Virus record (IMG/VR): IMGVR_UViG_3300036944_001243
DNA from: a virus
Lineage: Duplodnaviria; Heunggongvirae; Uroviricota; Caudoviricetes
DNA: 64,000 nt
Reading direction: 5' to 3' (one strand)
Of this stretch, positions 25,525 through 61,085 are shown piece by piece. The notes below the pieces were generated by a model. That model saw only the letters and a program-made list of their open reading frames with translations, did no database searches and had not been told where the DNA came from. Made by a program: the position numbers and the translations under genes. Positions within the stretch are counted from its first letter, which is position 1. Each line of letters begins with the position of its first letter.

Positions 25525-26295
25525 ATGCAAAAAGGTTTAAATATCAGTGGAATTTATCAAATTAAAAATAAAACGAACGGTAAATCATATATTGGAAGTT
25601 CGATAAATATTAGACTTAGATGGAAAGATCATAGAAGGAAGCTTCGCAAGGGGATTCATCATAGCAAACATTTGCAATCATCATTTGATAAATATGGTTT
25701 GGATTCATTTGAGTTTTTAATAATAGAAAAAGTTGATGATTTAAATAATTTATTAAAATCCGAACAAAAATGGATTGATTTTTATCAATCATATGATAGA
25801 TTATACGGATATAATTCTCGTAAATTCGCCAGCAGCAATTGGATGCTTTCTGTTTCTGATGAAACAAGAGAAAAATTAAAAAAATCTCATTTAGGGAAAA
25901 AAAGATCAAAAGAATGTCACAAAAAAATATTAGCCAGCATATCAAAAAAAGTTTATCAATTAGATAAAGAAACTTTAGAAAAAATTAATGAATTTTCGTC
26001 GTGTAAAGAAGGTGAAGAAAAAACAGGAATCGCGAGGCAGTTAATATCAATGGCATGTAGAGGAATTACAAAATCCGCAAAAGGTTATTGTTGGACATAT
26101 GATATTGATAATTTTAAAAAACCAGAAAAATATAATATCCTTCCAAAAGTTACCAGATTTATAATAGATCAAGATACTGGAAATGAATGGAAAACTATAA
26201 AAGAAGCAGCTGAATACTTAAATTTAACCAAAAATCAAATATACAGCTTAATTAAATGGAAAAAATTGATATATGAATATAGAAAAAACTACTAA
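25525..26295 (+). CDS. GIY-YIG homing endonuclease
   Basis: GIYQIKNKTNGKSYIGSSINIRLRWKDHRRKL GIY-YIG motif; AT-rich gene. Confidence 0.8.
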   Translation: MQKGLNISGIYQIKNKTNGKSYIGSSINIRLRWKDHRRKLRKGIHHSKHLQSSFDKYGLDSFEFLIIEKVDDLNNLLKSEQKWIDFYQSYDRLYGYNSRKFASSNWMLSVSDETREKLKKSHLGKKRSKECHKKILASISKKVYQLDKETLEKINEFSSCKEGEEKTGIARQLISMACRGITKSAKGYCWTYDIDNFKKPEKYNILPKVTRFIIDQDTGNEWKTIKEAAEYLNLTKNQIYSLIKWKKLIYEYRKNY

Positions 26296-47114: not shown

Positions 47115-47663
47115 ATGCAAGAAGAATGGCGCGATATTGTGGGATATGAGGGATTGTATCAGGTTTCTAATTTGGGGCAAATAAGGAATAGTAAAAAAGG
47201 GAAATTTTTAACTCTTTACGTAAGCGAGGGAAACGCAAATCACAAAGCTTACCGAACGACATTAAGTAATAAAAAAGCTCGAAAGTTTTTTGTTCACCGA
47301 TTAGTGGCGCAAGCATTTATTCTGAATCCTGATAATAAACCAGAGGTCGATCATATTGATCGAGACTCTTTGAATAATCATGTTTCTAATTTGCGGTGGG
47401 TCACTCCAAACGAGAACCAAATCAATACAGAAAAATTCAAAACAAAAGATTTTTCATCTACGTATAAGGGCGTTTCAAGGAGTAGAAATAAGTGGAGAGC
47501 CGTATTAGCATCAGCCACTTTTAAACACCTCGGGACTTATAATTGTCATCATGCCGCAGCCCGAAAATACAATCATCGTGTTTTAGAAGTCTTTGGCGAA
47601 TATGCCTACCTAAATAATGTAGCAAACTGTGATTGTGAGGAATGTAATGCCCTAAAAGCATGA
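47115..47663 (+). CDS. HNH homing endonuclease (NUMOD4 + HNH_3 type)
   Basis: WRDIVGYEGLYQVSNLGQIR (NUMOD4) and VDHIDRDSLNNHVSNLRWVTPNEN. Confidence 0.75.
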   Translation: MQEEWRDIVGYEGLYQVSNLGQIRNSKKGKFLTLYVSEGNANHKAYRTTLSNKKARKFFVHRLVAQAFILNPDNKPEVDHIDRDSLNNHVSNLRWVTPNENQINTEKFKTKDFSSTYKGVSRSRNKWRAVLASATFKHLGTYNCHHAAARKYNHRVLEVFGEYAYLNNVANCDCEECNALKA

Positions 47664-50304: not shown

Positions 50305-51614
50305 CTATTGACACTCACCATCCAACAGATTAATCTCGCCCCGACATGAAACCTCTCAACTACATCATCAGCAACTACGGTCTTGGCATTGCAATCGGCA
50401 TCACTGGCGACAAGCAACTTGCCGAGCAGGACGCAATCCTTGCAGAAAACATCTATGGATCAAACCACTCAGACGATCTGTTTGCTAGTCTTGTTTACAT
50501 GGCTAGCGTGCGACAATTCCAAAAGTTCCTCACGCTGAAAGAATACTTCTTGATTTGGGACGAACACTGGGGTAAGAACAAAGTCGCTGGTCGCCGCGAT
50601 CCCGCGCTGATTCTCCAGTTCACTCGCCGCGCCATCAAGCGTGCGCGTCTTATCATGGAAAGCAATGTTTCTTTTGAAAATTTCATGAGCGGGATCTCTG
50701 CTCGTAACAACACATACGAAATTGGTGGTTATCAAGACGAAGCCGCCGAAGCCTAATAAAACAAAATGATTACTCTCATCAAGTGGAGCAACGGCAGCAT
50801 CAATAAATTCCACAAGGGCGATCCAAATATCAAGGACTTTGTGCAGTGGAAGAAACAAAAGAATCCTGAATTGCGCATTGTGCTTCGTTATAATGCAAAA
50901 CCCGAAAACCTTTAATACTAAATAACATGAAAATCGGAGATAAAGTAAAAAGAATCAAAGAACACCAAGGTAGTTGGTGGTCAGGCTACTGCGCTAAAAA
51001 GGGATATTCTCCTGATCAAATCTTTACAATCAAAAATACTAAGACTAATAACTTATCATTTTTCCTTGAAGAAATGGAATATTCTTTGGGTTTTGATGCT
51101 GATAGGTTTGAACTTGCTCAACTTACTCCTGAACAAGAGTATGAAGAAGCCAAGAAACTAATTGGTAAGACTATTCTGGTTAAGGGAACTACTATCAAGT
51201 ATAAAGTAAGCAACGTTATCATTCGTAGAGATAACGACGAAGCTGGAATTTCTGGTTCGTGTATTTCTTTCCTCGAAAAGCATGGTTATGTTGTAGCGAT
51301 TAAGGGTGATGGTCTTAGTCGTCCATTTCCTGACGTTGTTGAATGTGGCAAAGAGATTAACGTCAAGCTCAACGATAAGCACGATGCTATCGTCACTAAG
51401 GACGGTATCAAGGTTGGATGCCAAACATTCTCCCATGATATTGTATACAAACTCAAGAACGCAATCGAAGAAATCAACAAGTAAATAACAAAAAAGGCAG
51501 GTTCTATCCCTGCCAAATAACAAAACGCCAAATAATAAAAGGACAAATAGCAAACGCCTAAATAGTTAATAATAGGGTATAGGGATAGGAGGGGGAGGGG
51601 GCCTATCTCATCTG

Positions 51615-51695
51615 TTGTAAGTCTTTGATTTTCAAGGAGTTATGGAGGCGGGGCCGCCCTGCGTTTGTAACTCTTTGATTTTCAAGCACTTACAG
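51615..51695. repeat. triple-hairpin cassette copy 1 (IR GTAAGTC..GAGTTAT / GC hairpin / IR GTAACTC..CACTTAC), degenerate
   Basis: member of 9-copy family. Confidence 0.6.
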
Positions 51696-51935
51696 AAGAT
51701 CCCAATTTTCCCAATCCTCATCGTCCATCAGAACGTCCTCTGGATCACCCGCCCCGATCATTCGGTCGATGTAGTCACCGATTTGTTCTTTTTTGTTTGA
51801 CTTGGCACGCGCACGCGCATCGAAATGCGTTCGATTGCGTCGGCAGTAATCACACGATCCATGGTTGCGACAAGTCCAGTCGAAGCGTCGGCTGTCAAAC
51901 TTTTTCGGGTAATCTTTTTTCTTTGAGCGGCTCAT
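51690..51935 (-). CDS. small basic Cys-rich (zinc-finger-like) protein
   Basis: CRNHGSCDYCRRNR; start taken at internal ATG after upstream gene stop. Confidence 0.35.
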   Translation of the reverse strand: MSRSKKKDYPKKFDSRRFDWTCRNHGSCDYCRRNRTHFDARARAKSNKKEQIGDYIDRMIGAGDPEDVLMDDEDWENWDLL

Positions 51936-51937
51936 GA

Positions 51938-52276
51938 TCAAAAGGGGCAATCGTTTTCGTCTGTTTCGTAATGTTGCGCGATAGCTCCAGCCCAAGTTTT
52001 TGTTTTTGGCGATTTGAGGCGGGCCTGATTCTCCAGCCACTCTTCATGGGTGCTGTCGTCCTCTGGGTGCTGCTGCTCTGGCCCGTTGTAGTATGGGTTG
52101 CGCTCCCAAGTGTCCCAACTGGAAAGAATCCATTGGCTGTTTAGGTTTTCCATGCCGAAGATCTGGCGTTGCTCTTCGATTGCTTCGCGGATGATGTGTT
52201 GGCGGGCGTCCATTTTATTGAGGGTTGATTGCGTAGACCATGCGGCCTTTGATAAACACTCTGTCGGCGGTGTCAA
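51938..52276 (-). CDS. hypothetical protein
   Basis: 112-aa ORF in minus-strand cluster. Confidence 0.35.
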   Translation of the reverse strand: MTPPTECLSKAAWSTQSTLNKMDARQHIIREAIEEQRQIFGMENLNSQWILSSWDTWERNPYYNGPEQQHPEDDSTHEEWLENQARLKSPKTKTWAGAIAQHYETDENDCPF

Positions 52277-52627
52277 CGTATTTTTCGCCGTTGTAGAATT
52301 TTTCCAGCTTGTAGGGATTGTAGGTGATCAGATCGAACCACTGGCCTTGTGTTGTTTGGTCCTCTGACACCGTGCCGCAGATGTAGGCATGCACGTTTTT
52401 TCTTTTGTTTTTAATTACACGCTGGCGTCCACGTTCGGACACTTTGAAAGTGACATCGATCAAAGAAATCTCTTGACAGTGGCGCACAACTTTCCACACG
52501 CCGTTGACCTTGGCTTGAACGGAAAGGAGTTTCTTTTGAAGGTTGAAGTAGACACGGACTTTCATGGCAGGGAAAAGCTACTTTGTTTCGATGGTTCTGT
52601 CAATGTTTTTTTGTGTATTTTTTTTTC

Positions 52628-52710
52628 TTTGTAAGTCGCTGGTTTTCAAGGACTTACGACGGCGCAGCGGCCCCGCCTTCGTAACTCGTTGATAGTCAAC
52701 AAGTTACAGG
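52628..52710. repeat. triple-hairpin cassette copy 2
   Basis: GTAAGTC-N13-GACTTAC, GC-rich hairpin, GTAACTC-N13-AAGTTAC. Confidence 0.6.
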
Positions 52711-52966
52711 GGCGATTTATTCTGCTAAAACCTGCTCAATTTGCTTGACAACCTCGCCCAGTTCGCTAGCCCCGAAGGGCAGAGCCTCCCCCACAACTCC
52801 ATGAGATATGGGAAAGGCCCGCAATGACATAACTTTAGAGTTGTCGTGTTCGGCAAGGACGAGGAAGTCGCCTTCCTCGGTCGCCAGTAGTGTTCGGAAA
52901 AGATTCATCTGCGACAAGCTAACATAAGCAGCATAAAAAGCAAGCACAAAGTAATTTTAGGGTCCA

Positions 52967-53689
52967 TCAGATTGCACCCCCATTCTCGGGCTCAAGCACG
53001 AAGCCTGTCAAATCTTTTTTGGCGCGGCCCTTTTCCACAAGGCCGACAACTTTTCCCTTGCCATCGAGAAAGCGGGCATCGGTTTCGTCACCGTTCACAA
53101 CATCAGCACCAAAGGCGCGGGCGGGGAGACTCTTTCTGAAAACCACTGCGACATTTCCACCAGAGCGCAAGACACTTTCCACAAGCTCGTTTGGCGTGTT
53201 CTCTTTACGGGAGAAAGTCAAATGGTAATTTGCGGGTAGTTCGCCAGCGAGGAAAGCCGACATGCGCCCGATGGTCGCGGTGTAGTCGTAAAACTGGACA
53301 CTTGGAAACATCTCGAAAATGTTCTTGCCATCATGGCGGATTTTCTCCCATGGGAGATCACTTGTGAGATTCAAGCGGAAAGCCGCTTGCATGCCATTTT
53401 TTTGTGCTTTTTTAACGGCTGCAACAATCTCCTTGACAAGCTGGGCCATAAAGGCCGACTTGTCGGAAAAGAACAAGCGAGTCTTTGCGATTCGCGCATT
53501 TTGAACCGTCGAGTAAACGCCCATTCCTGCGGTGTTGAGACATGCCGCCGCGCATCCTGCGGACGCATCCTTGCAAGTGTTAAAGCCCGACAAGGTGGAC
53601 GGAGCGAGATGGATTCCGAAAGTGGAAAAGCCAAGTTTTTCGCCCTTGCGGATTTTGGTGTTGGAAGTGGTGAGAAGTTTCACGGCCAC
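52967..53689 (-). CDS. hypothetical protein, possibly Gp37/Gp68-family (DUF5131)-like
   Basis: 240 aa; N-terminal ...GFSTFGIHLAPS...CKDASAGCAAAC; weak recollection only. Confidence 0.3.
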   Translation of the reverse strand: MAVKLLTTSNTKIRKGEKLGFSTFGIHLAPSTLSGFNTCKDASAGCAAACLNTAGMGVYSTVQNARIAKTRLFFSDKSAFMAQLVKEIVAAVKKAQKNGMQAAFRLNLTSDLPWEKIRHDGKNIFEMFPSVQFYDYTATIGRMSAFLAGELPANYHLTFSRKENTPNELVESVLRSGGNVAVVFRKSLPARAFGADVVNGDETDARFLDGKGKVVGLVEKGRAKKDLTGFVLEPENGGAI

Positions 53690-53796
53690 AAGATAGCAAG
53701 CGAGCCAGCCCTTGCAAGTCTTTTCTTGCGCATTTTCCGAAAAAAAGTTTCTCGAAAAAAACTTGACAAGAAAAAAAAAGAAAAAAAACTTGACAG

Positions 53797-53876
53797 CGTA
53801 ACTCGTTGATTTTCAAGGACTTACAACGGCGCGGGGGCCGCGCCCGCATAACTCTTTGATTTTCAGTGAGTTACAC
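53797..53876. repeat. triple-hairpin cassette copy 3
   Basis: GTAACTC-N12-GACTTAC, GGCGCGGGGGCCGCGCC, ATAACTC-N12-GAGTTAC; preceded by tandem AAAACTTGACA repeats. Confidence 0.7.
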
Positions 53877-53942
53877 AGCGAATTTTTTTGCTTGACAACG
53901 CCAGAATCCCGCCCCGCTTTCGCGGGGCAGGATCGTAGGTGT

Positions 53943-54737
53943 TCAGCCGACCACGACCACAGGGTCCAGATCGTCAGTGCCAGCATCGGCAGGGTCGATG
54001 TCAACAACAATCTGCGGACGATGGCCCGCCATGCGGTCGAACACGCTCTGCGCTGTCATCGTGCGGAATGGCAGCTTGGACAAGTCGCCGCCCTTGAGGT
54101 TTTCCGTGATCGAGTTGTAGAGTGTCCAGAGCGTGCCGCCCTTGAACTCGTCGTGTCGAGGGTTGCGGAACTCCTGCACGGCGGAATAGATGTCGCGGGC
54201 AGGGAATGCCTTGGCGTCCACAAGATCAATCAGCAAATCCGCCGCACGGTCACGGCTGATTTCGGTTTCCTTGTAAAGCTCGATCCGCTTGCCCATGTCG
54301 TTCCAATGAGAAACAACGCGGGCCACAGCATCCGACAGCACGCGGGGAAGATCCGACATGATGTTGGTAGTATGGCGGCGAGCCAACTTAATGTCAGAAG
54401 AGAAGCAAAGATTCTCGCAAACCAACATTCGGTTGCCCACGCAGATCGAAGCAGCGAAACTCTTGTCGTGCGCGTTGCGCAGGCCAAGGACGATTTCGCG
54501 ATCCGCGCCCGTAATGTCAAGGCCCTTGAGGGCGAAGCCGCCGAAGTAACGCTGGCCACCACGGGCGAGGGAATGCTCTTCAAGACCGACCTCAAGACCA
54601 GCGCGGCCAATGGCTTCGCGAGTCATTTCGACAAGGCCGAAGTGAGGGATCGGGGTGAAGGAATCGGTGCGTTCTGGAGTCTGAACACCCATGAGTTGTT
54701 CAGCGTTCACTTTGTTCTTTGCAATGATGAGGGCCAT
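53943..54737 (-). CDS. hypothetical protein (264 aa)
   Basis: globular composition; flanked by repeat cassettes; overlapping plus ORF 53856..54923 judged shadow. Confidence 0.4.
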   Translation of the reverse strand: MALIIAKNKVNAEQLMGVQTPERTDSFTPIPHFGLVEMTREAIGRAGLEVGLEEHSLARGGQRYFGGFALKGLDITGADREIVLGLRNAHDKSFAASICVGNRMLVCENLCFSSDIKLARRHTTNIMSDLPRVLSDAVARVVSHWNDMGKRIELYKETEISRDRAADLLIDLVDAKAFPARDIYSAVQEFRNPRHDEFKGGTLWTLYNSITENLKGGDLSKLPFRTMTAQSVFDRMAGHRPQIVVDIDPADAGTDDLDPVVVVG

Positions 54738-54882
54738 GATGTTGTGGGATTGGGAGTTGGAGTTGGAGCGCCGTCAGTGGCGACGGGGAAAAGATACCAA
54801 AGATTCGGGGCGAGTCAACACGTTTTTGATTGTTTCCGTGCTTTTATGTCAGAAAAAAGATTGCGCATATTTTGCTTTCCTC

Positions 54883-54901
54883 TTGACAACAACCTGTCAA
54901 G
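54883..54901. promoter_or_regulatory. palindromic CTTGACA-N5-TGTCAAG element (TTGACA on both strands)
   Basis: perfect 7-bp inverted repeat 15 nt upstream of cassette 4. Confidence 0.45.
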
Positions 54902-54917
54902 AACTTTTTTTCACCAT

Positions 54918-54997
54918 ACGTAACTCGTTCATTATCAACGAGTTACAACGGCGCGGGGGCCGCGCCTGCGTAAGTCCTTGATAGTCAGTCACTTACG
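54918..54997. repeat. triple-hairpin cassette copy 4
   Basis: canonical GGCGCGGGGGCCGCGCC core with flanking inverted repeats. Confidence 0.7.
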
Positions 54998-55069
54998 AGG
55001 CTGGTTTTTATTGATTTTTTTTCTTGACAAACGAAGAGCCCCGCCCCCTTTCGGGGGCGAGGCCGAGGA

Positions 55070-55498
55070 TCAGTGGGCAACCTCCTTGACGAGCTTACCG
55101 CAGCGGAAGGTCACGACCGCATCCTTGTGAGCAGATGCCCAAGTTTCGGTATTGCGGTTGACGAAGGGGACGTATCCAGAGGCGCGGACGGTATCAACGC
55201 CGCCCTTCAGGAGCCGCTGATATTTGTCCTTGCCATTGATGACGCGGGTGGTTCCGTCCTTCTTGACAAAGGTGATGGAAAAGAACTTTCCCTTGGTTTC
55301 TGCGATCAGGTTGTCGAGTTCGGTTTGCATGGTCGGGGTCATTGGTTTGGTTTCTGCTTGTTTGTTTTTGTCTAGTTTGGAAAGGCGGTATTCGGTGATG
55401 AGCGTGTGGATTGCCAAGCCGATCACGCCGAGAGTGATGGCGATGATCGAGCCGAAGAAGAAGAAGGCGAAGATGTTGGCGACTGTGGATTCTTGCAT
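55070..55498 (-). CDS. membrane-anchored hypothetical protein
   Basis: N-terminal TM helix IFAFFFFGSIIAITLGVIGLAI. Confidence 0.4.
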   Translation of the reverse strand: MQESTVANIFAFFFFGSIIAITLGVIGLAIHTLITEYRLSKLDKNKQAETKPMTPTMQTELDNLIAETKGKFFSITFVKKDGTTRVINGKDKYQRLLKGGVDTVRASGYVPFVNRNTETWASAHKDAVVTFRCGKLVKEVAH

Positions 55499-55841
55499 TT
55501 GGTTTGGTTGGTTGGTGTTGCGGTTACGGGTGAGAGCTTAGGCGGCTTTGCGATTGTTGGCAAGGACTTTTTTCATCTTTTTCAGAATGTCCGACGCTTC
55601 CTTGCGGTCCAGAAGTGCCGAAGCGGTTTCGGTGCCGATGTAAAACGAAAAAATGCTTTTGCATGCTTTACGGTTCGGTCCTTTGATGTTCAACAGCGAA
55701 GTTTTCGCGATGTAGTAGGCGTTGCCGTTCTTGGTGCGGGAGATCTCGTTCACGGGGAAAGATTACCAACGGCGGGCGGGCATTGCAAGAACTCTTTTGC
55801 ATTTTCTGCGAAAAAAAAGACTGCGCATTTTTTGCTTTGTG

Positions 55842-55861
55842 CTTGACAGGCTCATGTCAAG
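55842..55861. promoter_or_regulatory. palindromic CTTGACA-N6-TGTCAAG element
   Basis: same architecture upstream of cassette 5; preceded by conserved GCGCATTTTTTGCTTTGTG. Confidence 0.45.
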
Positions 55862-55876
55862 AACTTTTTTCATGCT

Positions 55877-55958
55877 GTGTAAGTCGTTGATTATTAACGA
55901 GTTACGACGACGCGGGGGCCGCGCCCGTGTAAGTCCTTGGTTTTCAATGGGTTAGGCA
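55877..55958. repeat. triple-hairpin cassette copy 5
   Basis: as above. Confidence 0.7.
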
Positions 55959-55999
55959 AGGGGGCCACCACAACCCCCTTGCCATTTTCACCCACCATG

Positions 56000-56500
56000 T
56001 CAACCAGAAACTTTTAGAAAATCAATGAAATCTTCCGCCAGATAGCAGATGATTTGCTCAAGGAAAAAATACTCGCCTTCTGTCGCGAAACAGCTTGAGT
56101 TTTGGATTGCCTCCCAAGGGAAGACTTTCTTTCGATTGGCAAGGTTTTCTTCGTCGTTTTCCTCTTCGGCAAGTAGTGCGAGGCAAAGAGTTTCGGCGTC
56201 CCATTCTTGAGGCCAGTTAGACAAGAAATGACTGGCGGCTTTTAGATACGCTTTCGCATGGATAGGATTACGCAGATCAAGACCATTACTAAAATCTTCA
56301 TTCACTTTGATGATTGCGGGAGGTTCGGGCAGTTGCTTTTTTGTTTCAACATATGCATCGGCGGCTTTGGCCATGCGTGTCAATTCGATGAGAGCTTCTC
56401 CCCTTACAGAAGCATTTTTATTTTGACAAGCCGAAAGAAGCAAGTCGAGAACGTCTTCCCATTTGGGGGTCATGTCAATGATGTTTTGTGCGGCAGGCAT
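56000..56500 (-). CDS. hypothetical protein (166 aa)
   Basis: ORF track. Confidence 0.4.
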   Translation of the reverse strand: MPAAQNIIDMTPKWEDVLDLLLSACQNKNASVRGEALIELTRMAKAADAYVETKKQLPEPPAIIKVNEDFSNGLDLRNPIHAKAYLKAASHFLSNWPQEWDAETLCLALLAEEENDEENLANRKKVFPWEAIQNSSCFATEGEYFFLEQIICYLAEDFIDFLKVSG

Positions 56501-56822
56501 TTTTTTTGGTTTGTTTCTTTTTGTCGGTGTGACGGATGGCGGGGGGAGCGAAGCGAAGTCTAGGCTTTGCGGCGGGGATTGTCAAGGTGATTTTCATGTT
56601 AATGTTCTTTTTGGGACCATTCCTTTGGAATCCAAGCTTGGCGCAATTCTTTTCTGATTGCTCTTTTCAAAGCATCCATGTCGTAAGCATTTGTTCTATG
56701 ACCGATGCCGCTAGTCATGATGATTTCCTCCAGCGAATTATTCACACGCTTTTCGAAATTCATTTTGTTTTTTAGTTCCATGGCAGCGAGAGTATGGGTG
56801 ATGGATAGATGGCTGTCAACAA

Positions 56823-57230
56823 TTAAACAGGAATTCTCAGGCGTGCGGGGATTTGGAGGATTGCGCACCACTTGCGCCAGTTCTTGCCGTGAAGGCTTCG
56901 ACGGCTGGCGACAACATACGTGCCGCGCTCTTGGAAGTCAAGCAAATGCGCCAACTCATGCAAGAAAACCTCGCGAAACAATCCGAAAGATCCAAGAACC
57001 TTTTCCGACAGTTCGATCATGGAATCTTCGGCGTATGCCAAGCCAAGAAAACGATTTGGTTTCATCCATTGCACGCGCACGGATGACATGCCCCACTGCT
57101 TGAGTGTGAGGCGGATGTATTGTTCGACTTCTTGCGTGGTCAACGACATGCCCGAATTTAATTTATTTGCGGCCAGTGTCAAATTATTTGTCGCCAATTT
57201 CGAGAAAAACTTTTCCGTAGTATGGCGCAT
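56823..57230 (-). CDS. SprT-like/zinc metallopeptidase-like protein
   Basis: HExxH motif VFLHELAHLLD. Confidence 0.45.
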   Translation of the reverse strand: MRHTTEKFFSKLATNNLTLAANKLNSGMSLTTQEVEQYIRLTLKQWGMSSVRVQWMKPNRFLGLAYAEDSMIELSEKVLGSFGLFREVFLHELAHLLDFQERGTYVVASRRSLHGKNWRKWCAILQIPARLRIPV

Positions 57231-57458
57231 CAGGCTTTACAAATTCATTGCCGCGAAGATCAACGACATTCAGATCGTCAAGCGTCAAATCTTTCCATTC
57301 TGTTCCATAGTCACGATCATGAGAAAGGCACTGGACAACCGCTTCTTGCGGCACTTTTTGCAGGGCTTCGATGAGTTGGGCAACGGTGACTGTCATGCGC
57401 AAAGAATAGCAGAAGAGGGCGGCGGCACAAGAGTTTTTTTGATTATTTTGTGCTTGAC

Positions 57459-57540
57459 ACGTAAGTCGCTGATTATCAAGGACTTACGCGGGCGCGGGGG
57501 CCGCGCCGTTGTAACTCGTTGGTTTTCAGAGAGTTATGGA
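57459..57540. repeat. triple-hairpin cassette copy 6
   Basis: as above. Confidence 0.7.
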
Positions 57541-58189
57541 GGGAGGCTTTCGCCTCCCTCCTTTCACCCACCATGTCAACCCAAAACTTCAATTTTGAGC
57601 CAGAAAAATTCTTTGACACCCATCTCATCCAAGAAACGTTGCTCTTGAATGCAGAGCGAAAAGCTACTGTTCTTGAAAAAGACATAACGGCCATCCAGCT
57701 TGATTTTTTTCCAGTTTTTTTCCTTTGGATTTTTCGAGGCGAAGGAAATTTTTACTTCGGAAAGCGAGTTTTCTAGGGGAATGTCAAGAACCTTTGAAAC
57801 AAACTTATTACAGACAGCAAGATCAGACTCGCTTTGATTGGAGCAGAAGAAGCTAGAGATGCGCTTGAGATTCAGGGTGAGGCGTGTTTTGGTTGGTTTC
57901 ATGGCGGCGAGAGTTTGGAGTTTTGCGGCGGATTAGTCAAGAAAAAATTGGCGCTTATATTGTGCCTCATCGACTTGCTTGGCAAGCCAAGTGCGCTGCT
58001 GGAAAATGCGTGGGCCGAAAACAGGCTGGCGGCGGCGGATGAAGAGGGAGACGACGAAGTTCAGGAATTTCATGGGCGCAGTATGGGCTTTTTAGAGGGT
58101 TTGTCAACAGAAAAAAACAGCAAACAGCAAATGGCAAAATAGTAAATAGCAAATCAACAAATGATATATAATGACATATCATTGGCAAG

Positions 58190-58300
58190 AGACTGATTTT
58201 CAATGGGTTGCACCGATCCTCTGTAAGTCATTGGTTTTCAACGAGTTACGCGGGCGCGGCCCCCCTCCCTCTGTAACTCCTTGATTTTCAACGAGTTACG
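58190..58300. repeat. triple-hairpin cassette copy 7 (GC core half-deleted, extra partial arm upstream)
   Basis: GTAAGTC..GAGTTAC, CGGGCGCGGCCCC, GTAACTC..GAGTTAC. Confidence 0.6.
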
Positions 58301-58868
58301 CCGACATCTTGCCCAGCCCCTGCCATAACTTAACTTCATAACCTCTACGGATAACTAACCCGCGCAGTGTCTTACCATTAGCTTTACAATAGAGCGGCAA
58401 CAACTTAACCACACTATCATAGTTTCCACTGTTAAGTCTATTGGGGCCGCTAATCAAAGACTTGAGACAACCCTCGTTTGTGTTATGGGTAAAGCTAACA
58501 AGGGCGGCAAGTTGGTATTCTGTCAGCTTAACCTTAACATGCCGCAAAACCAATTTTTTTGTTTCAGTCAGTTCTTGCATAAGAACTGTTTCTGCTTTAG
58601 ATAGCGACATGCTTTGCGATGCATACTTACCAGTATGACCATAACCGACAGTTAAGACACCAGCAGGACAGCGATAAGGTTGCGCCTTATATGACTCAAA
58701 AGACTTAATTTTCTCTGTCATACCAACAAACCATTCCACATTATGCTTAGGCTTAACCAGCATAGGATAGTTTTTAAGATTTTTGACTACGGAGAATGTT
58801 GGCACTGTCTGGATAGACAGCGCGGCAACAATACCTGCGATAGTGGCGGCGAGCATGAGACTTTTCAT
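58296..58868 (-). CDS. SAR endolysin, GH24 T4-lysozyme-like
   Basis: N-terminal Gly/Ala-rich signal-anchor MKSLMLAATIAGIVAALSI; catalytic region FESYKAQPYRCPAGVLTVGYGHT. Confidence 0.7.
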   Translation of the reverse strand: MKSLMLAATIAGIVAALSIQTVPTFSVVKNLKNYPMLVKPKHNVEWFVGMTEKIKSFESYKAQPYRCPAGVLTVGYGHTGKYASQSMSLSKAETVLMQELTETKKLVLRHVKVKLTEYQLAALVSFTHNTNEGCLKSLISGPNRLNSGNYDSVVKLLPLYCKANGKTLRGLVIRRGYEVKLWQGLGKMSA

Positions 58869-59642
58869 TTATCGGTTTTTTGCGATGAAGAACAGGACAG
58901 CGATAAGGATAATGAACATTGTTTTATTTAAGTTTTTTTTCAATGAAAAGACCTGTGTAGACAGCCTGATCTTTGTTTTTGTTTTTGTATGGATAATTTT
59001 CCATAAAATTTTCAAAGGCTTCGATTGCGGCCTCATCAGTGGCTTCGGCCAGACGAGCCCTGAAAAAAGTGTGCATCAACAGCACGCCGTCATTCGTGGG
59101 AATGTCGTAATTTACTTGAACAAGGAACATGGGATTGGGTGGTGGTGGTTAACGGGGAAAGAATGACACGGGGATCGAACCCGCGCAAGGTTTTTTTATG
59201 GGAGGAAGTCCAGTTCCTCGATTTCGACGATTGCCTCGCCGCCGTCATCGAAGGAAATCTGCGCTTCGTTTCCTTCGAAACCTTCGACGACGACGACTTG
59301 ATTCTTGTAAACTGCGAATGCGATCATGGATTGGGTGGTGGGTGAAGTGTCGGTTGACGGGGAAAGAGTAACTCGGGCGAACGGATTAGGCAACTTCTTT
59401 TTCGTCTTTTTTGCAGAATTCTTCGGTCCATTCGGCAACTTCATTGGCGAGGGCTTCAAAGCGGCCAGTTGCTGCGATTAGTTCGGTGATCCAAGCTGGG
59501 GTTTCGGTGACGTTCTCCATGCGCAAAGAATACAGCGGCGACCGATTAAACGCAAGATCTTTTCACTATTTTCCGCAGAAAAAAAAGCTGCGCATTTTTT
59601 GCTTTGTGCTTGACAAGCCGCAATTCAATCATGACATATCAT

Positions 59643-59722
59643 TTGTAACTCACTGATTTTCAACGACTTGCGCGGGCGTGGGAGCGGCTTCGCCGTAACT
59701 CATTGAGAATCAACGACTTATG
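59643..59722. repeat. triple-hairpin cassette copy 8 (degenerate GC core)
   Basis: as above. Confidence 0.6.
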
Positions 59723-60427
59723 GTTTTTGCTTTTTGCAAAGATTTTTCTTGACATGGTTGGCTGGCCCCCACCACAAGGGCCAGCCTTTCCCACCATGCC
59801 ATCACACCGCAAGGTCAATGCCTGCGATGTGGAGATTGCGAAACTTGGACTCGCCGCCGTCGTCAATGTCAAGAGCTTTGACGGTGACAAAACGCTTGCC
59901 GTCCTTGGAGAAGCCGACATGATCGACCGCTTCAATCTTCAAGACGCGCACGCCATCCTTTTTGATGCTGGATTTTTCAGCGAGGTAGCGGACGGTTTTT
60001 CCAACGAGGGCGGAAGCGATTTCGACAGCGGATGCGGAGTAGTTGAGGAACATTGGATTCGTTTGGTTGACGGGGAAAGAGTAGCACGGGGATTGAACCC
60101 GCGCAAGAGGTTTTTCGATTATTTGTTCAGCTTGACTTCGGTGATGAAGTAATCTTGACCTTCAACGAAGTATGGCCAAGCGCCTTTCATTTCCTTTGCT
60201 GCTGCTTCGATGGCCCAGCGGATGCCGCGAGCGGCAACCTCCAGAGAAAACCCCTTTTCGTTCTCAGCCTTGAACTCGATGCGGACGGTGAAGTTGGACA
60301 TGCGCAAAGAATACGGCAGGGACCGACGAAACACAAGATCTTTTTTGCTGTTTTCTGGAAAAGATTTTCTGCACTTTTTTTCTTTTTTTATTTGACATAT
60401 CTCTATGACATATCATTTGTAAGTCGT

Positions 60428-60508
60428 TCATTTTCAATGACTTACGCGGGCGCGGGGGCCGCGCCTTCATAACTCGTTGATGTTCAACGACTTACAGAGG
60501 AGGTTTAG
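60428..60508. repeat. triple-hairpin cassette copy 9
   Basis: canonical core. Confidence 0.7.
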
Positions 60509-61085
60509 CATATCTTCGGAGTTATGCCAAAGACATGCCATGACATATCAGACAGCCGCACCATTGGGCAGTGTGTCGAGGTAATGGGAAACGCGCTCAT
60601 TGTATGCCTTCACCTTCTCTTGCCAAGCCTCTTCGCTGATTGGCTCGATGCTGGCGATACGCTCGGGCGTTGGCACGAACTTAACCCAGCCTTGCAAGGC
60701 TTCGAACTTGACGCGCTCGCCTTCGTATCCAAGGAAGGTTCCGATGTTGGTGCGAGTGCCGATTGCGAGGGTGGAGAGGTTGTCCATGGGGAAAGAGTAA
60801 TGCAGGGGTAGAAGAAAAGCAAGATCTTTTTGCCTGTTTTCGATGAAAAAGTGACCCCTCCCCCCATTTCTCAAAAAAAATCTTGACATTGGTGCGTGAG
60901 AAAGCGAGGGGGGACACTTTCCTCAGTCTCCAACTCCCATTATAACACTTCCAACACCCGCTGGGGGCCAAGCCCCCTCCCCCCCATTATCCGAGACGTT
61001 TGCGGTCCTCTAAGAAATCACTCAAAAACCATCCCAAAAAAAATCCCAACCCACTTTTCTACAAAACCTTGTGTAAATAAAAAAA

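Follow-up and report, generated by a model that had tools for sequence, protein, structure and literature searches.

Paired palindromes around a GC-rich hairpin: candidate boundary elements between early transcription units of uncultivated T4-like phages

The early regions of T4-type phages contain short repeated intergenic modules known as promoter-early stem-loops (PeSLs; Arbiol et al. 2010, PMC2839356; Comeau et al. 2014, PMC4122927). A comparable arrangement is found in a 64,000-nt stretch of viral DNA, IMG/VR record IMGVR_UViG_3300036944_001243 (hereafter the window, whose coordinates are used throughout), where nine copies of a 77-bp cassette, consisting of a GC hairpin between two 27-bp palindromes, lie on the minus strand among small genes. 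PeSL cassettes are the nearest known kind of element, and a literature search on elements of this kind returned PeSL papers only. Both are short repeated modules in the hyperplastic early region of a T4-like genome, set between small open reading frames (ORFs); both place a G-run/loop/C-run stem-loop upstream of a sigma-70-like promoter, the present one with G-rich 5' and C-rich 3' arms; and both are located at indels or replacements between close relatives. They differ in what is conserved. In PeSLs this is a promoter, a Shine-Dalgarno sequence and a start codon at fixed spacing, with no flanking palindromes, whereas the present cassettes keep a pair of palindromes, have their promoter at a variable distance and lack a Shine-Dalgarno sequence. 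PeSLs are, moreover, conserved within one phage pair, and the present motif across hundreds of divergent phages. Termination of transcription by the stem-loop and the formation of mini-circles from cassette to cassette are further traits ascribed to PeSLs. What is new relative to PeSLs is thus the paired, deeply conserved palindromes and the existence of lineage-specific alternatives to them. The reading put forward here, which may well be right but which we hold tentatively, is that the cassette is a PeSL-like composite boundary element between early transcription units, in which the flanking palindromes would act as DNA sites bound by protein dimers.

Other repeated elements offer partial parallels. 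The BIME-1/RIP elements of Escherichia coli consist of REP hairpins around an IHF site, and the Correia elements of Neisseria are inverted repeats with an IHF site. Like the cassettes, these are extragenic composites of GC-rich hairpins and IHF-consensus sites at the 3' ends of units. The layout of BIME-1/RIP is inverted here, however, with IHF-like sites flanking the hairpin; REP stems covary whereas the present palindromes do not; and, unlike BIMEs and Correia elements, the cassettes of the window belong to one 9-kb phage cluster, show no target-site duplication and have a sequence that is absent from E. coli. The stoperators of mycobacteriophage L5 (GGTGGMTGTCAAG) are 13-bp, asymmetric, single sites of the lysogeny repressor. 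Together with the conserved inverted repeat of phiC31 they share with the cassettes the principle of many intergenic copies, one protein and control of the early region. The cluster also contains homologues of L5 gp82 and gp88 and is enriched in TGTCAAG, recalling the TGTCAAG end of stoperators. The present sites, in contrast, come in symmetric pairs of 27 bp on either side of a GC hairpin, and the phage is T4-like and of the lytic type.

The architecture of the cassettes is unusually regular. A repeat finder recovered a single family from the window, nine copies of about 92 nt between 51614 and 60507 at spacings of 762-1582 bp (Table 1). Scanning the whole window for the palindrome as GTAASTC-N13-GASTTAC, with at most two mismatches, gave 18 matches where 0.36 were expected; all fall inside the nine cassettes, two in each, and the two palindromes start exactly 50 bp apart in 9 of 9. 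A covariance model built from relatives and the window copies, run on the 64 kb up to E=10, detected the nine cassette sites only. These results bear out the nine cassettes, about 1 kb apart from 51.6 to 60.5 kb, that an original prediction made from the same DNA had described. That prediction was right in placing two copies of an inverted repeat, GTAA(G/C)TC...GA(G/C)TTAC, round a core, but described the repeat too short: the full palindrome, C-GTAASTCNYTGA-NNN-TCARNGASTTAC-G, spans 27-29 bp, and its 29-bp duplex form is CGTAACTCGTTGATAATCAACGAGTTACG. The GC hairpin, thought to be perfect in each copy, matches GGCGCGG-NNN-CCGCGCC exactly in four of the nine; a fifth deviates at one position, and the remaining four cores are degenerate. 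Nor does a cassette stand in every intergenic gap: about 9 of 21 gaps have one and some 12 of 21 gene junctions do not, so that roughly 21 minus-strand genes are split into about ten units of one to four genes. Relatives contain regular cassettes of three and four palindromes, with which the degenerate third copy near cassette 7 may be compared.

The window is one member of a widespread set. The palindrome pattern matches at least 120 IMG/VR loci, and the loci fetched for analysis hold 1010 palindromes, with neighbouring copies 50 bp apart in 293 pairs and 254 distinct two-palindrome cassettes; palindromes also occur in threes and fours, at intervals of 34 bp, and the GC spacers range from 13 to 33 nt. 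Where a locus has a PhoH homologue (61 loci), its cassettes lie without exception upstream of the phoH gene, the same as in the window. When loci were sampled by PhoH similarity alone, counting those with at least 2.5 kb of upstream sequence (n=50), 41 had cassettes upstream and none had them downstream. Six positions of the 27-bp motif are invariant, and the fixed 50-bp pairing is kept across hundreds of divergent uncultivated phages. Among 50,697 cultured phage genomes (INPHARED), megablast of the cluster and blastn of one cassette gave no match, and neither did tblastn of the neighbouring 273-residue and sigma-like proteins. Rfam held no match at E<=1, and literature searches with the half-site sequences returned primers and satellite probes only. 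The cassette family is large and strongly non-random, and apparently undescribed.

Is it sequence or structure that selection maintains? The question was addressed by aligning 66 synteny-oriented cassettes of about 40 phages and shuffling the pairing partners 500 times. In the palindromes 84.8% of cells are paired against 84.7% after shuffling, a level reached in 238 of the 500 shuffles; changes at positions 8/20 and 9/19 are uncompensated. On the sense strand 132 G·U stand beside 165 A·C mismatches, so there is no G·U excess. Compared with its reverse complement, the matrix of each palindrome gives r=0.965 and 0.954 when degenerate positions are counted in, and the central NNN, which would be the loop triplet, is the least conserved part of the palindrome. 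The palindromes are conserved as sequence and not as structure, and are two-fold symmetric DNA motifs. Because they lack covariation, are symmetric as motifs and show no G·U excess, they are best understood as double-stranded sites for a two-fold symmetric protein. The S position (5/23) deserves separate mention, since a systematic G/G or C/C mismatch there had been the argument for the first option of the original prediction, a symmetry bound by protein at the DNA level and not a simple terminator. It is strictly G or C in both halves, but is complementary in 9 of the 18 window palindromes and paired in 54-58% of the family against 49-52% by chance; it is free, not systematically mismatched. 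The argument fails, whereas the conclusion drawn from it is favoured by the comparative data above.

The central GC helix is the sole part of the cassette under selection for base pairing. In the same alignment 61.0% of its cells are paired against 50.3±1.9 after shuffling (reached in 0 of 500), the score for covariation is 0.291 as compared with 0.171, the helix does better than every slid register, and spacers of 13-33 nt with very different sequences still self-pair. Pairing the first palindrome with the second, as in a single long hairpin, brings no gain beyond the contribution of this helix. A covarying helix would suit an element that works as RNA, folded into three hairpins or one long one and serving as a factor-independent terminator, an mRNA 3'-end stabiliser or an RNase III-like processing site such as those between T7 early genes. 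The cassettes stand directly after stop codons and fold far better than shuffled sequence (z -4.1 to -9.2); many relatives have an A-run upstream and a T-run downstream, as bidirectional terminators do, and in L028 a phage tRNA gene has its end right at a cassette. Yet the palindromes, which make up 54 of the 77 nt, neither covary nor prefer G·U over A·C on the sense strand, their loop is the least conserved part, and single copies switch between the three-hairpin and the long-hairpin fold. Cassettes with three or four palindromes at 34-bp spacing hardly make sense as terminators, an Rfam match is absent, and the single palindromes found in bacteria (see below) mostly lack a T-run. In the window no T-tract follows the cassettes, and an intrinsic terminator was called at 0 of 9 on the coding (minus) strand, where C-GTAA rather than a U-tract comes after the hairpin; the T-rich flanks lie outside the whole cassette and in some relatives only. 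An RNA-level element is therefore unlikely as an account of the whole cassette. The processing or termination signal offered as an option in the original prediction may apply to the covarying central helix, but not to the palindromes.

The position of the cassettes relative to genes was measured on 122 oriented copies. From the upstream stop codon to the cassette start the median distance is 26 nt, and in 21 of 122 cassettes of relatives the stop codon is the TAA within the GTAA of the palindrome. The window has two such cases, the lysozyme gene 58296-58868 (stop 58296-58298) and the gene 51690-51935 (stop 51690-51692), whose stops fall in the upstream palindromes of cassettes 7 and 1, respectively. 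The distance from cassette to next start codon has a median of 93 nt and ranges from about 20 to more than 300 nt, with no fixed or helically phased spacing, which speaks against reading the palindromes as activator sites. A sigma-70 promoter within the palindrome was discarded, there being no -10 element at the right spacing. Cluster genes have sigma-70-like promoters of their own right before the start codon, with the -10 element sited 6-7 nt before the ATG, and no Shine-Dalgarno sequence; early mRNAs would therefore be leaderless or nearly so, which hints at an unusual translation style of the host. The -10-like hexamers are TATTCT and TACTCT in the window (starts 57396, 59519 and 60300) and TATACT or TATAAT in relatives.

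These observations can be accommodated by the boundary element proposed at the outset. Each palindrome would be a double-stranded DNA site bound by a dimer of one sequence-specific protein, and the loaded cassette, together with the GC stem-loop, would confine transcription to each unit by stopping or insulating it, as its position suggests. The cassette sits directly behind the stop of one unit and some 70-120 bp ahead of the next promoter, and would there block read-through from upstream as well as starts at the adjoining inward-facing TTGACA boxes. A roadblock or insulator fits better than an activator site because of this stop-adjacent position, the inward boxes and the multi-palindrome variants. 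Such cassettes would give the phage a single handle on every early unit and, being repeated, would also supply homology for gene shuffling.

The boxes just mentioned are part of a wider enrichment. TGTCAAG/CTTGACA occurs 35 times in the window against 10.6 expected, a three-fold excess, with 21 of the copies inside the cluster. The CTTGACA elements and the extra motif reported beside the cassettes are thus confirmed, the motif being ATGATATGTCAT, which follows cassettes 7-9. The boxes are concentrated at 52.4-61.4 kb and lie mostly on the coding strand. ATGATATGTCAT is an exact 12-mer and a near-palindrome, and similar GATATGTCA repeats occur upstream of cassette 9 and in two loci of relatives (L012 and L114). 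In relatives, TTGACA boxes that face the cassette are enriched on both sides, most commonly at a distance of 32 nt and with a poor -10-like hexamer after them. Of 119 cassettes, 54 have an exact TGTCAA 20-49 nt away on the downstream side and 38 a TTGACA 1-40 nt away on the upstream side, and the commonest geometry on either side is TTGACA-N16-TA(T/A)RRR-N10-cassette.

Could the cassettes themselves be transcribed from these boxes, as small RNA genes? Inward sigma-70-like promoters on one or both sides would then drive a sense and/or antisense RNA of about 90 nt that ends at the flanking T-run, and the A-rich and T-rich flanks would supply the U-tails; the enrichment of facing boxes on both sides and their commonest geometry are in keeping with this. 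The -10-like hexamers, however, mostly lack the conserved final T (TATGGG, TATAGA), many boxes are 1-2 or 21 nt from the cassette and leave no room for a -10 element, and in the window the promoter geometry is faint where present at all. Covariation of the RNA type is lacking in the palindromes, and two fully complementary RNAs would have no obvious use. We consider small RNA genes very improbable. A tRNA T-arm-like hairpin, GCGCGGGTTCAATCCCCGTGC (repeat family D2), lies within the spacer of two promoter-like regions of the cluster, at 60084-60104 and 59166-59186 (minus strand), and was also flagged as terminator-like by the terminator scanner.

A promoter of another type had been suggested by the likeness of the core, with its short GC stem and 3-nt purine loop on the template strand, to the hairpin promoters of the N4 virion RNA polymerase (vRNAP). 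The GC hairpin would in that case be extruded on the template strand and read by a single-subunit RNA polymerase of the phage. Five window copies do have the 7-bp stem (one of them mismatched) with a 3-nt GGG loop on the template strand, the polarity of the loop is kept, reading CCC or CCG on the coding strand in 77 of 122 copies, and the loop centre is a fixed 11 nt from the start of the downstream palindrome. But no vRNAP gene or ORF of vRNAP size was found in the window, where the largest ORF has 643 residues, or in 123 related loci, which are not complete genomes and where the largest has 1261. The phage is T4-like, each unit has a host-type, sigma-70-type promoter at its start codon, and the hairpin varies in sequence, loop and spacer (13-33 nt), its fixed-register helix being 61% paired. 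An N4-type promoter is not supported and is scarcely credible here.

Comparison with close relatives indicates what happens to the units over time. The closest relative, contig IMGVR_UViG_3300005758_000102 (loci L012, L100 and L121), is about 80% identical and has a collinear array but for unit changes. The window carries an extra unit of about 1.1 kb with an end at cassette 7. A 780-bp unit of the relative that is missing from the window lies between two cassettes, both of which match window cassette 8, one by its left flank and the other by its right. Finally, the gene at 60119-60301 is replaced in the relative by 973 bp with an additional cassette. In these alignments three unit-level indels or replacements have their breakpoints in cassettes, which thus mark where units come, go or are exchanged. 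In L121 the L5 gp82-like gene (52215-52565) and a small neighbouring gene (51938-52213) have changed places, and no cassette separates them. GC cores at least 80% identical make up 18.7% of within-locus pairs against 1.7% of pairs between loci; the cores are homogenised within genomes.

Other sister phages carry a different cassette. Five loci with a close PhoH lack the palindromes but keep the genes, at 70-80% amino-acid identity (DUF932 73-80%, gp88-like 70-73%), and have other motifs at the corresponding intergenic positions. Two of them, L204 and L246, have cassettes of the form TCTAACAG-ATTTTTAT-[GC-rich core]-ATAAAAAT-CTGTTAGA at about 1-kb spacing, and L189 has CTAACAG arrays with 10-11 bp phasing plus a GC hairpin, also about 1 kb apart. 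L228 is likewise of the TCTAACAG-ATTTTTAT type, and L196 has CTAACAG arrays; CTAACAG repeats also occur beside palindrome cassettes in L042, L057, L098 and L123, and are not enriched in the window. Contigs of the palindrome type include IMGVR_UViG_3300042465_006864 (133.8 kb) and IMGVR_UViG_3300044675_006259, those of the TCTAACAG/ATTTTTAT type IMGVR_UViG_3300008448_000890 and IMGVR_UViG_3300044642_000449, and IMGVR_UViG_3300012667_000971 is of the CTAACAG-array type. The clearest comparison is between L205, of the palindrome type, and L204, of the ATTTTTAT type. Their flanking genes are 79-97% identical, and the cassette type differs at every orthologous gap; it is the entire intergenic regions that differ, not the cassettes alone. 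Each genome is homogeneous for one cassette type, which implies a genome-wide reader or concerted replacement, and the presence of the same genes beside different motifs in sister phages argues for a reader that is specific to the lineage.

Breakage of units at cassettes, homogenised cores and the swapping of cassette type over a whole array are also what might be seen if the cassettes were recombination or mobile sites, with lox-, dif- or pdif-like cores, integron-like cassettes or miniature transposon ends, and the units of about 1 kb as cargo. The palindrome has the size of a recombinase dimer site, palindromes adjoin tyrosine integrases in L162 and L132, and the arm (A/G)TAACTC seems to resemble the ATAACTT with which loxP and rox arms start. 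The inverted arms that lox-, dif- or att-type sites have (11-13 bp) are present, but the variable centre measures 3 bp, whereas tyrosine recombinases need a crossover region of 6-8 bp, and its odd length does not suit the serine type. Scans of ORFs in the window and the conserved neighbourhood turned up neither a recombinase nor a transposase. Target-site duplication is not clearly seen either: flanking direct repeats of 3 and of 5-8 nt are as frequent as after shuffling, and those of 4 nt show a small excess (23 against 13.9). Sister phages, as noted, differ in entire intergenic regions, beyond the cassettes, and in a T4-like phage a 77-bp repeat suffices for homologous recombination, as proposed for PeSLs (PMC4122927). 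Taken as a whole, site-specific recombination or mobility is decidedly unlikely.

Could the alternative types instead be dialects of one system? A bolder form of the boundary-element reading, possible but rather doubtful, is a clade-wide "punctuation" in which a dedicated dimeric phage protein would read the 50-bp-paired palindromes at the end of every early unit and would switch, insulate or terminate all units jointly, reader and sites co-evolving as swappable sets. If this were true, the GTAASTC...GASTTAC, TCTAACAG/ATTTTTAT and CTAACAG-array types would be three such sets; homologous readers in Fibrobacter, integrative elements and plasmids would use single sites; and the system would represent a new class of phage gene-regulatory architecture and a new family of DNA-binding specificity.

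What kind of protein might read the palindromes? The half-sites read YAA-N4-TTGAT / ATCAA-N4-TTR, with TCAA-N4-TTA in register in each half. The consensus of IHF, a DNABII protein, is WATCAANNNNTTR. The full WATCARNNNNTTR consensus is found in 317 of 484 palindromes (65%) and in 12 of the 18 in the window, which has 22 matches in all, on both strands. Because the half-sites match the IHF consensus, the reader is possibly a DNA-bending protein of the IHF/HU type that would read the minor groove. A palindrome of 27-29 bp is about the size of an IHF footprint, and the G/C-only position 5/23 fits readout of the minor groove or of shape. Natural IHF sites, on the other hand, are asymmetric and far more degenerate, and the invariant GTAA, TC and GA of the palindrome lie outside the IHF consensus. 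Operators of other kinds were compared as well, and none of CIRCE, NtcA, FNR, Fis, SlmA, parS, dif or Ter fits.

Several results weigh against a dimer-bound boundary element with such a reader. The IHF match is a single family-level coincidence, estimated at about 1e-3. The palindrome is more specific than any natural IHF site and is rare in bacteria outside Fibrobacter; its specificity, its absence from E. coli and PLSDB and its bacterial rarity argue against a general nucleoid protein as the reader. No HU/IHF (DNABII) homologue was detected in the window or in 167 loci, and Pfam and PHROG scans of about 60 window ORFs gave no recognisable DNA-binding regulator domain, homing endonucleases and a weak sigma region-2 match being the sole exceptions. 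As candidates for the reader, the 273-residue protein, PhoH, the zinc-ribbon protein and the sigma-like protein were set aside, since none co-varies with cassette type. The fixed 50 bp amounts to about 4.76 helical turns, which puts the two sites on different faces of the DNA. The cassettes also have a direction, weak though it is: the upstream flank is A-rich and the downstream one T-rich, the downstream palindrome is the better conserved, the core loop keeps its CCC or CCG on the coding strand in the 77 of 122 copies mentioned above, and in 7 of 9 the coding strand receives the better score from the covariance model. Given this polarity, symmetric DNA binding alone is insufficient as an explanation, and the covarying central helix means that some step uses single-stranded nucleic acid. 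Sequence searches of the PDB with the DUF932, sigma-like and WYL_2-like proteins returned nothing useful. Between the sister loci L204 and L205 the sole large differences are a terminase intein and a scaffold-like ORF, and the array gene families missing from cassette-less loci, which are fragmentary, are small uncharacterised proteins. The intein, of about 1.2 kb and the LAGLIDADG type, lies in the terminase large subunit (13461-16532 in L204) and is also present in L246, not in L205.

Outside phages the palindrome occurs mostly as a single site. The strict pattern was found in 44 stretches among 185,579 species genomes, where we estimate about 0.1 by chance; 25 of the 44 are in Fibrobacter, at two conserved intergenic loci, and the others in Bacteroidota, Akkermansia, Pirellulaceae, Gemmatimonadota, Brucellaceae and Pantoea, with a few representing mis-binned phage contigs that bear several cassettes. 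E. coli genomes and PLSDB plasmids contain no match. Membership of a known terminator family or family of miniature inverted-repeat transposable elements shared by unrelated hosts, raised in the original prediction, found no backing: single palindromes do occur in bacterial genomes, but there is no Rfam family, no target-site duplication and no E. coli or PLSDB match. Some of the bacterial single palindromes occupy places at which architectural sites would be expected, with a tRNA end on one side and an integrase on the other in L162 and L138 and beside the iterons of a Rep3 replicon in L161. The single sites have no neighbour gene in common (M23 peptidase, integrase, Rep3, dynamin-like, HD-domain protein, ABC ATPase and radical-SAM enzyme are all represented), and sensitive phmmer searches found no protein common to the bacterial single-site loci and the phage arrays. 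At the first Fibrobacter locus (L125, L131, L133, L135, L148 and 11 more) the palindrome is about 170-260 bp upstream of a conserved 136-residue ORF (MKFVFLCDANYLKGD...), with a giant ORF before and an M23 peptidase gene after, and TGACAA-N17-19-TAnnTTTG promoter-like motifs lie in between. At the second, the palindrome lies between ORFs of 125 and 1302 residues. In four GC-rich, non-T4-like contigs (L075, L050, L112 and L146) one palindrome heads a small operon with a WYL_2-like and a DUF932 gene, families that in the window follow cassettes 5 and 4, respectively; the shared pair suggests an older link between the palindrome and these genes.

The window comes from an uncultivated phage of the T4-like kind, allied to the cyanomyoviruses, and the cluster corresponds to the hyperplastic region of its early genes. 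The gene set includes rIIA, rIIB, clamp loader, PhoH, NAMPT, PRPP synthetase and thymidylate synthase, as well as homing endonucleases and a sigma-like protein, and a virion protein is 62-70% identical to those of Synechococcus myoviruses. The cluster is located between the replication (clamp-loader) module and a conserved block of four genes for the 273-residue protein, PhoH, the zinc-ribbon protein and the sigma-like protein. Its small minus-strand genes include those for DUF932, L5 gp88-like, L5 gp82-like, SprT-like and WYL_2-like proteins and the lysozyme, and its GC content (52000-60000) is 46-53% against about 40% elsewhere in the window. The plus-strand part contains free-standing homing-endonuclease ORFs at 47115-47663 and 25525-26295 (HNH_3 and NUMOD4; GIY-YIG/HNH-type PHROG), and a 484-residue ORF at 13894-15348 matches PHROG 850, annotated as an RNA-binding protein.

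Table 1. Coordinates of the cassettes and of the motifs beside them in the window
Feature	Position	Strand	Details
Cassette 1, last of cluster	51617-51693	-	palindromes 51617-51643, 51667-51693; GC core 51644-51666, GGGCGGCCCCGCC type
Cassette 2	52631-52707	-	palindromes 52631-52657, 52681-52707; degenerate GC core 52658-52680
Cassette 3	53798-53874	-	palindromes 53798-53824, 53848-53874; perfect GGCGCGG-GGG-CCGCGCC at 53828-53844
Cassette 4	54920-54996	-	palindromes 54920-54946, 54970-54996; perfect core hairpin 54950-54966
Cassette 5	55879-55955	-	palindromes 55879-55905, 55929-55955 (second: 3 mismatches to pattern); core 55909-55925, one mismatch
Cassette 6	57461-57537	-	palindromes 57461-57487, 57511-57537; perfect core 57491-57507; unit missing from closest relative
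Cassette 7	58223-58299	-	palindromes 58223-58249, 58273-58299; degenerate core
Cassette 8	59645-59721	-	palindromes 59645-59671, 59695-59721; degenerate core
Cassette 9, first in transcription direction	60419-60495	-	palindromes 60419-60445, 60469-60495; perfect core 60449-60465
Degenerate third palindrome beside cassette 7	58185-58211	-	GCAAGAGACTGATTTTCAATGGGTTGC on plus strand
20-bp palindrome CTTGACA-N6-TGTCAAG	54882-54901	.	just downstream (coding direction) of cassette 4; -35-like box faces cassette
20-bp palindrome CTTGACA-N6-TGTCAAG	55842-55861	.	just downstream (coding direction) of cassette 5
ATGATATGTCAT	58171-58182	-	after degenerate third palindrome (58185-58211) beside cassette 7
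ATGATATGTCAT	59631-59642	-	2 nt downstream of cassette 8
ATGATATGTCAT	60405-60416	-	2 nt downstream of cassette 9

How early genes are started, stopped and insulated in environmental T4-like phages is poorly understood; to our knowledge these phages are without the MotA/AsiA system of T4. The strength of the palindrome motif points to a specific protein-DNA interaction, and the presence of alternative cassette types in sister phages amounts to a natural experiment for finding the reader by comparative genomics. The cassettes delimit accessory units, probably devoted to host takeover or anti-defence, together with the points at which these are exchanged, and could thus serve as landmarks for annotating and mining accessory genes in viromes.

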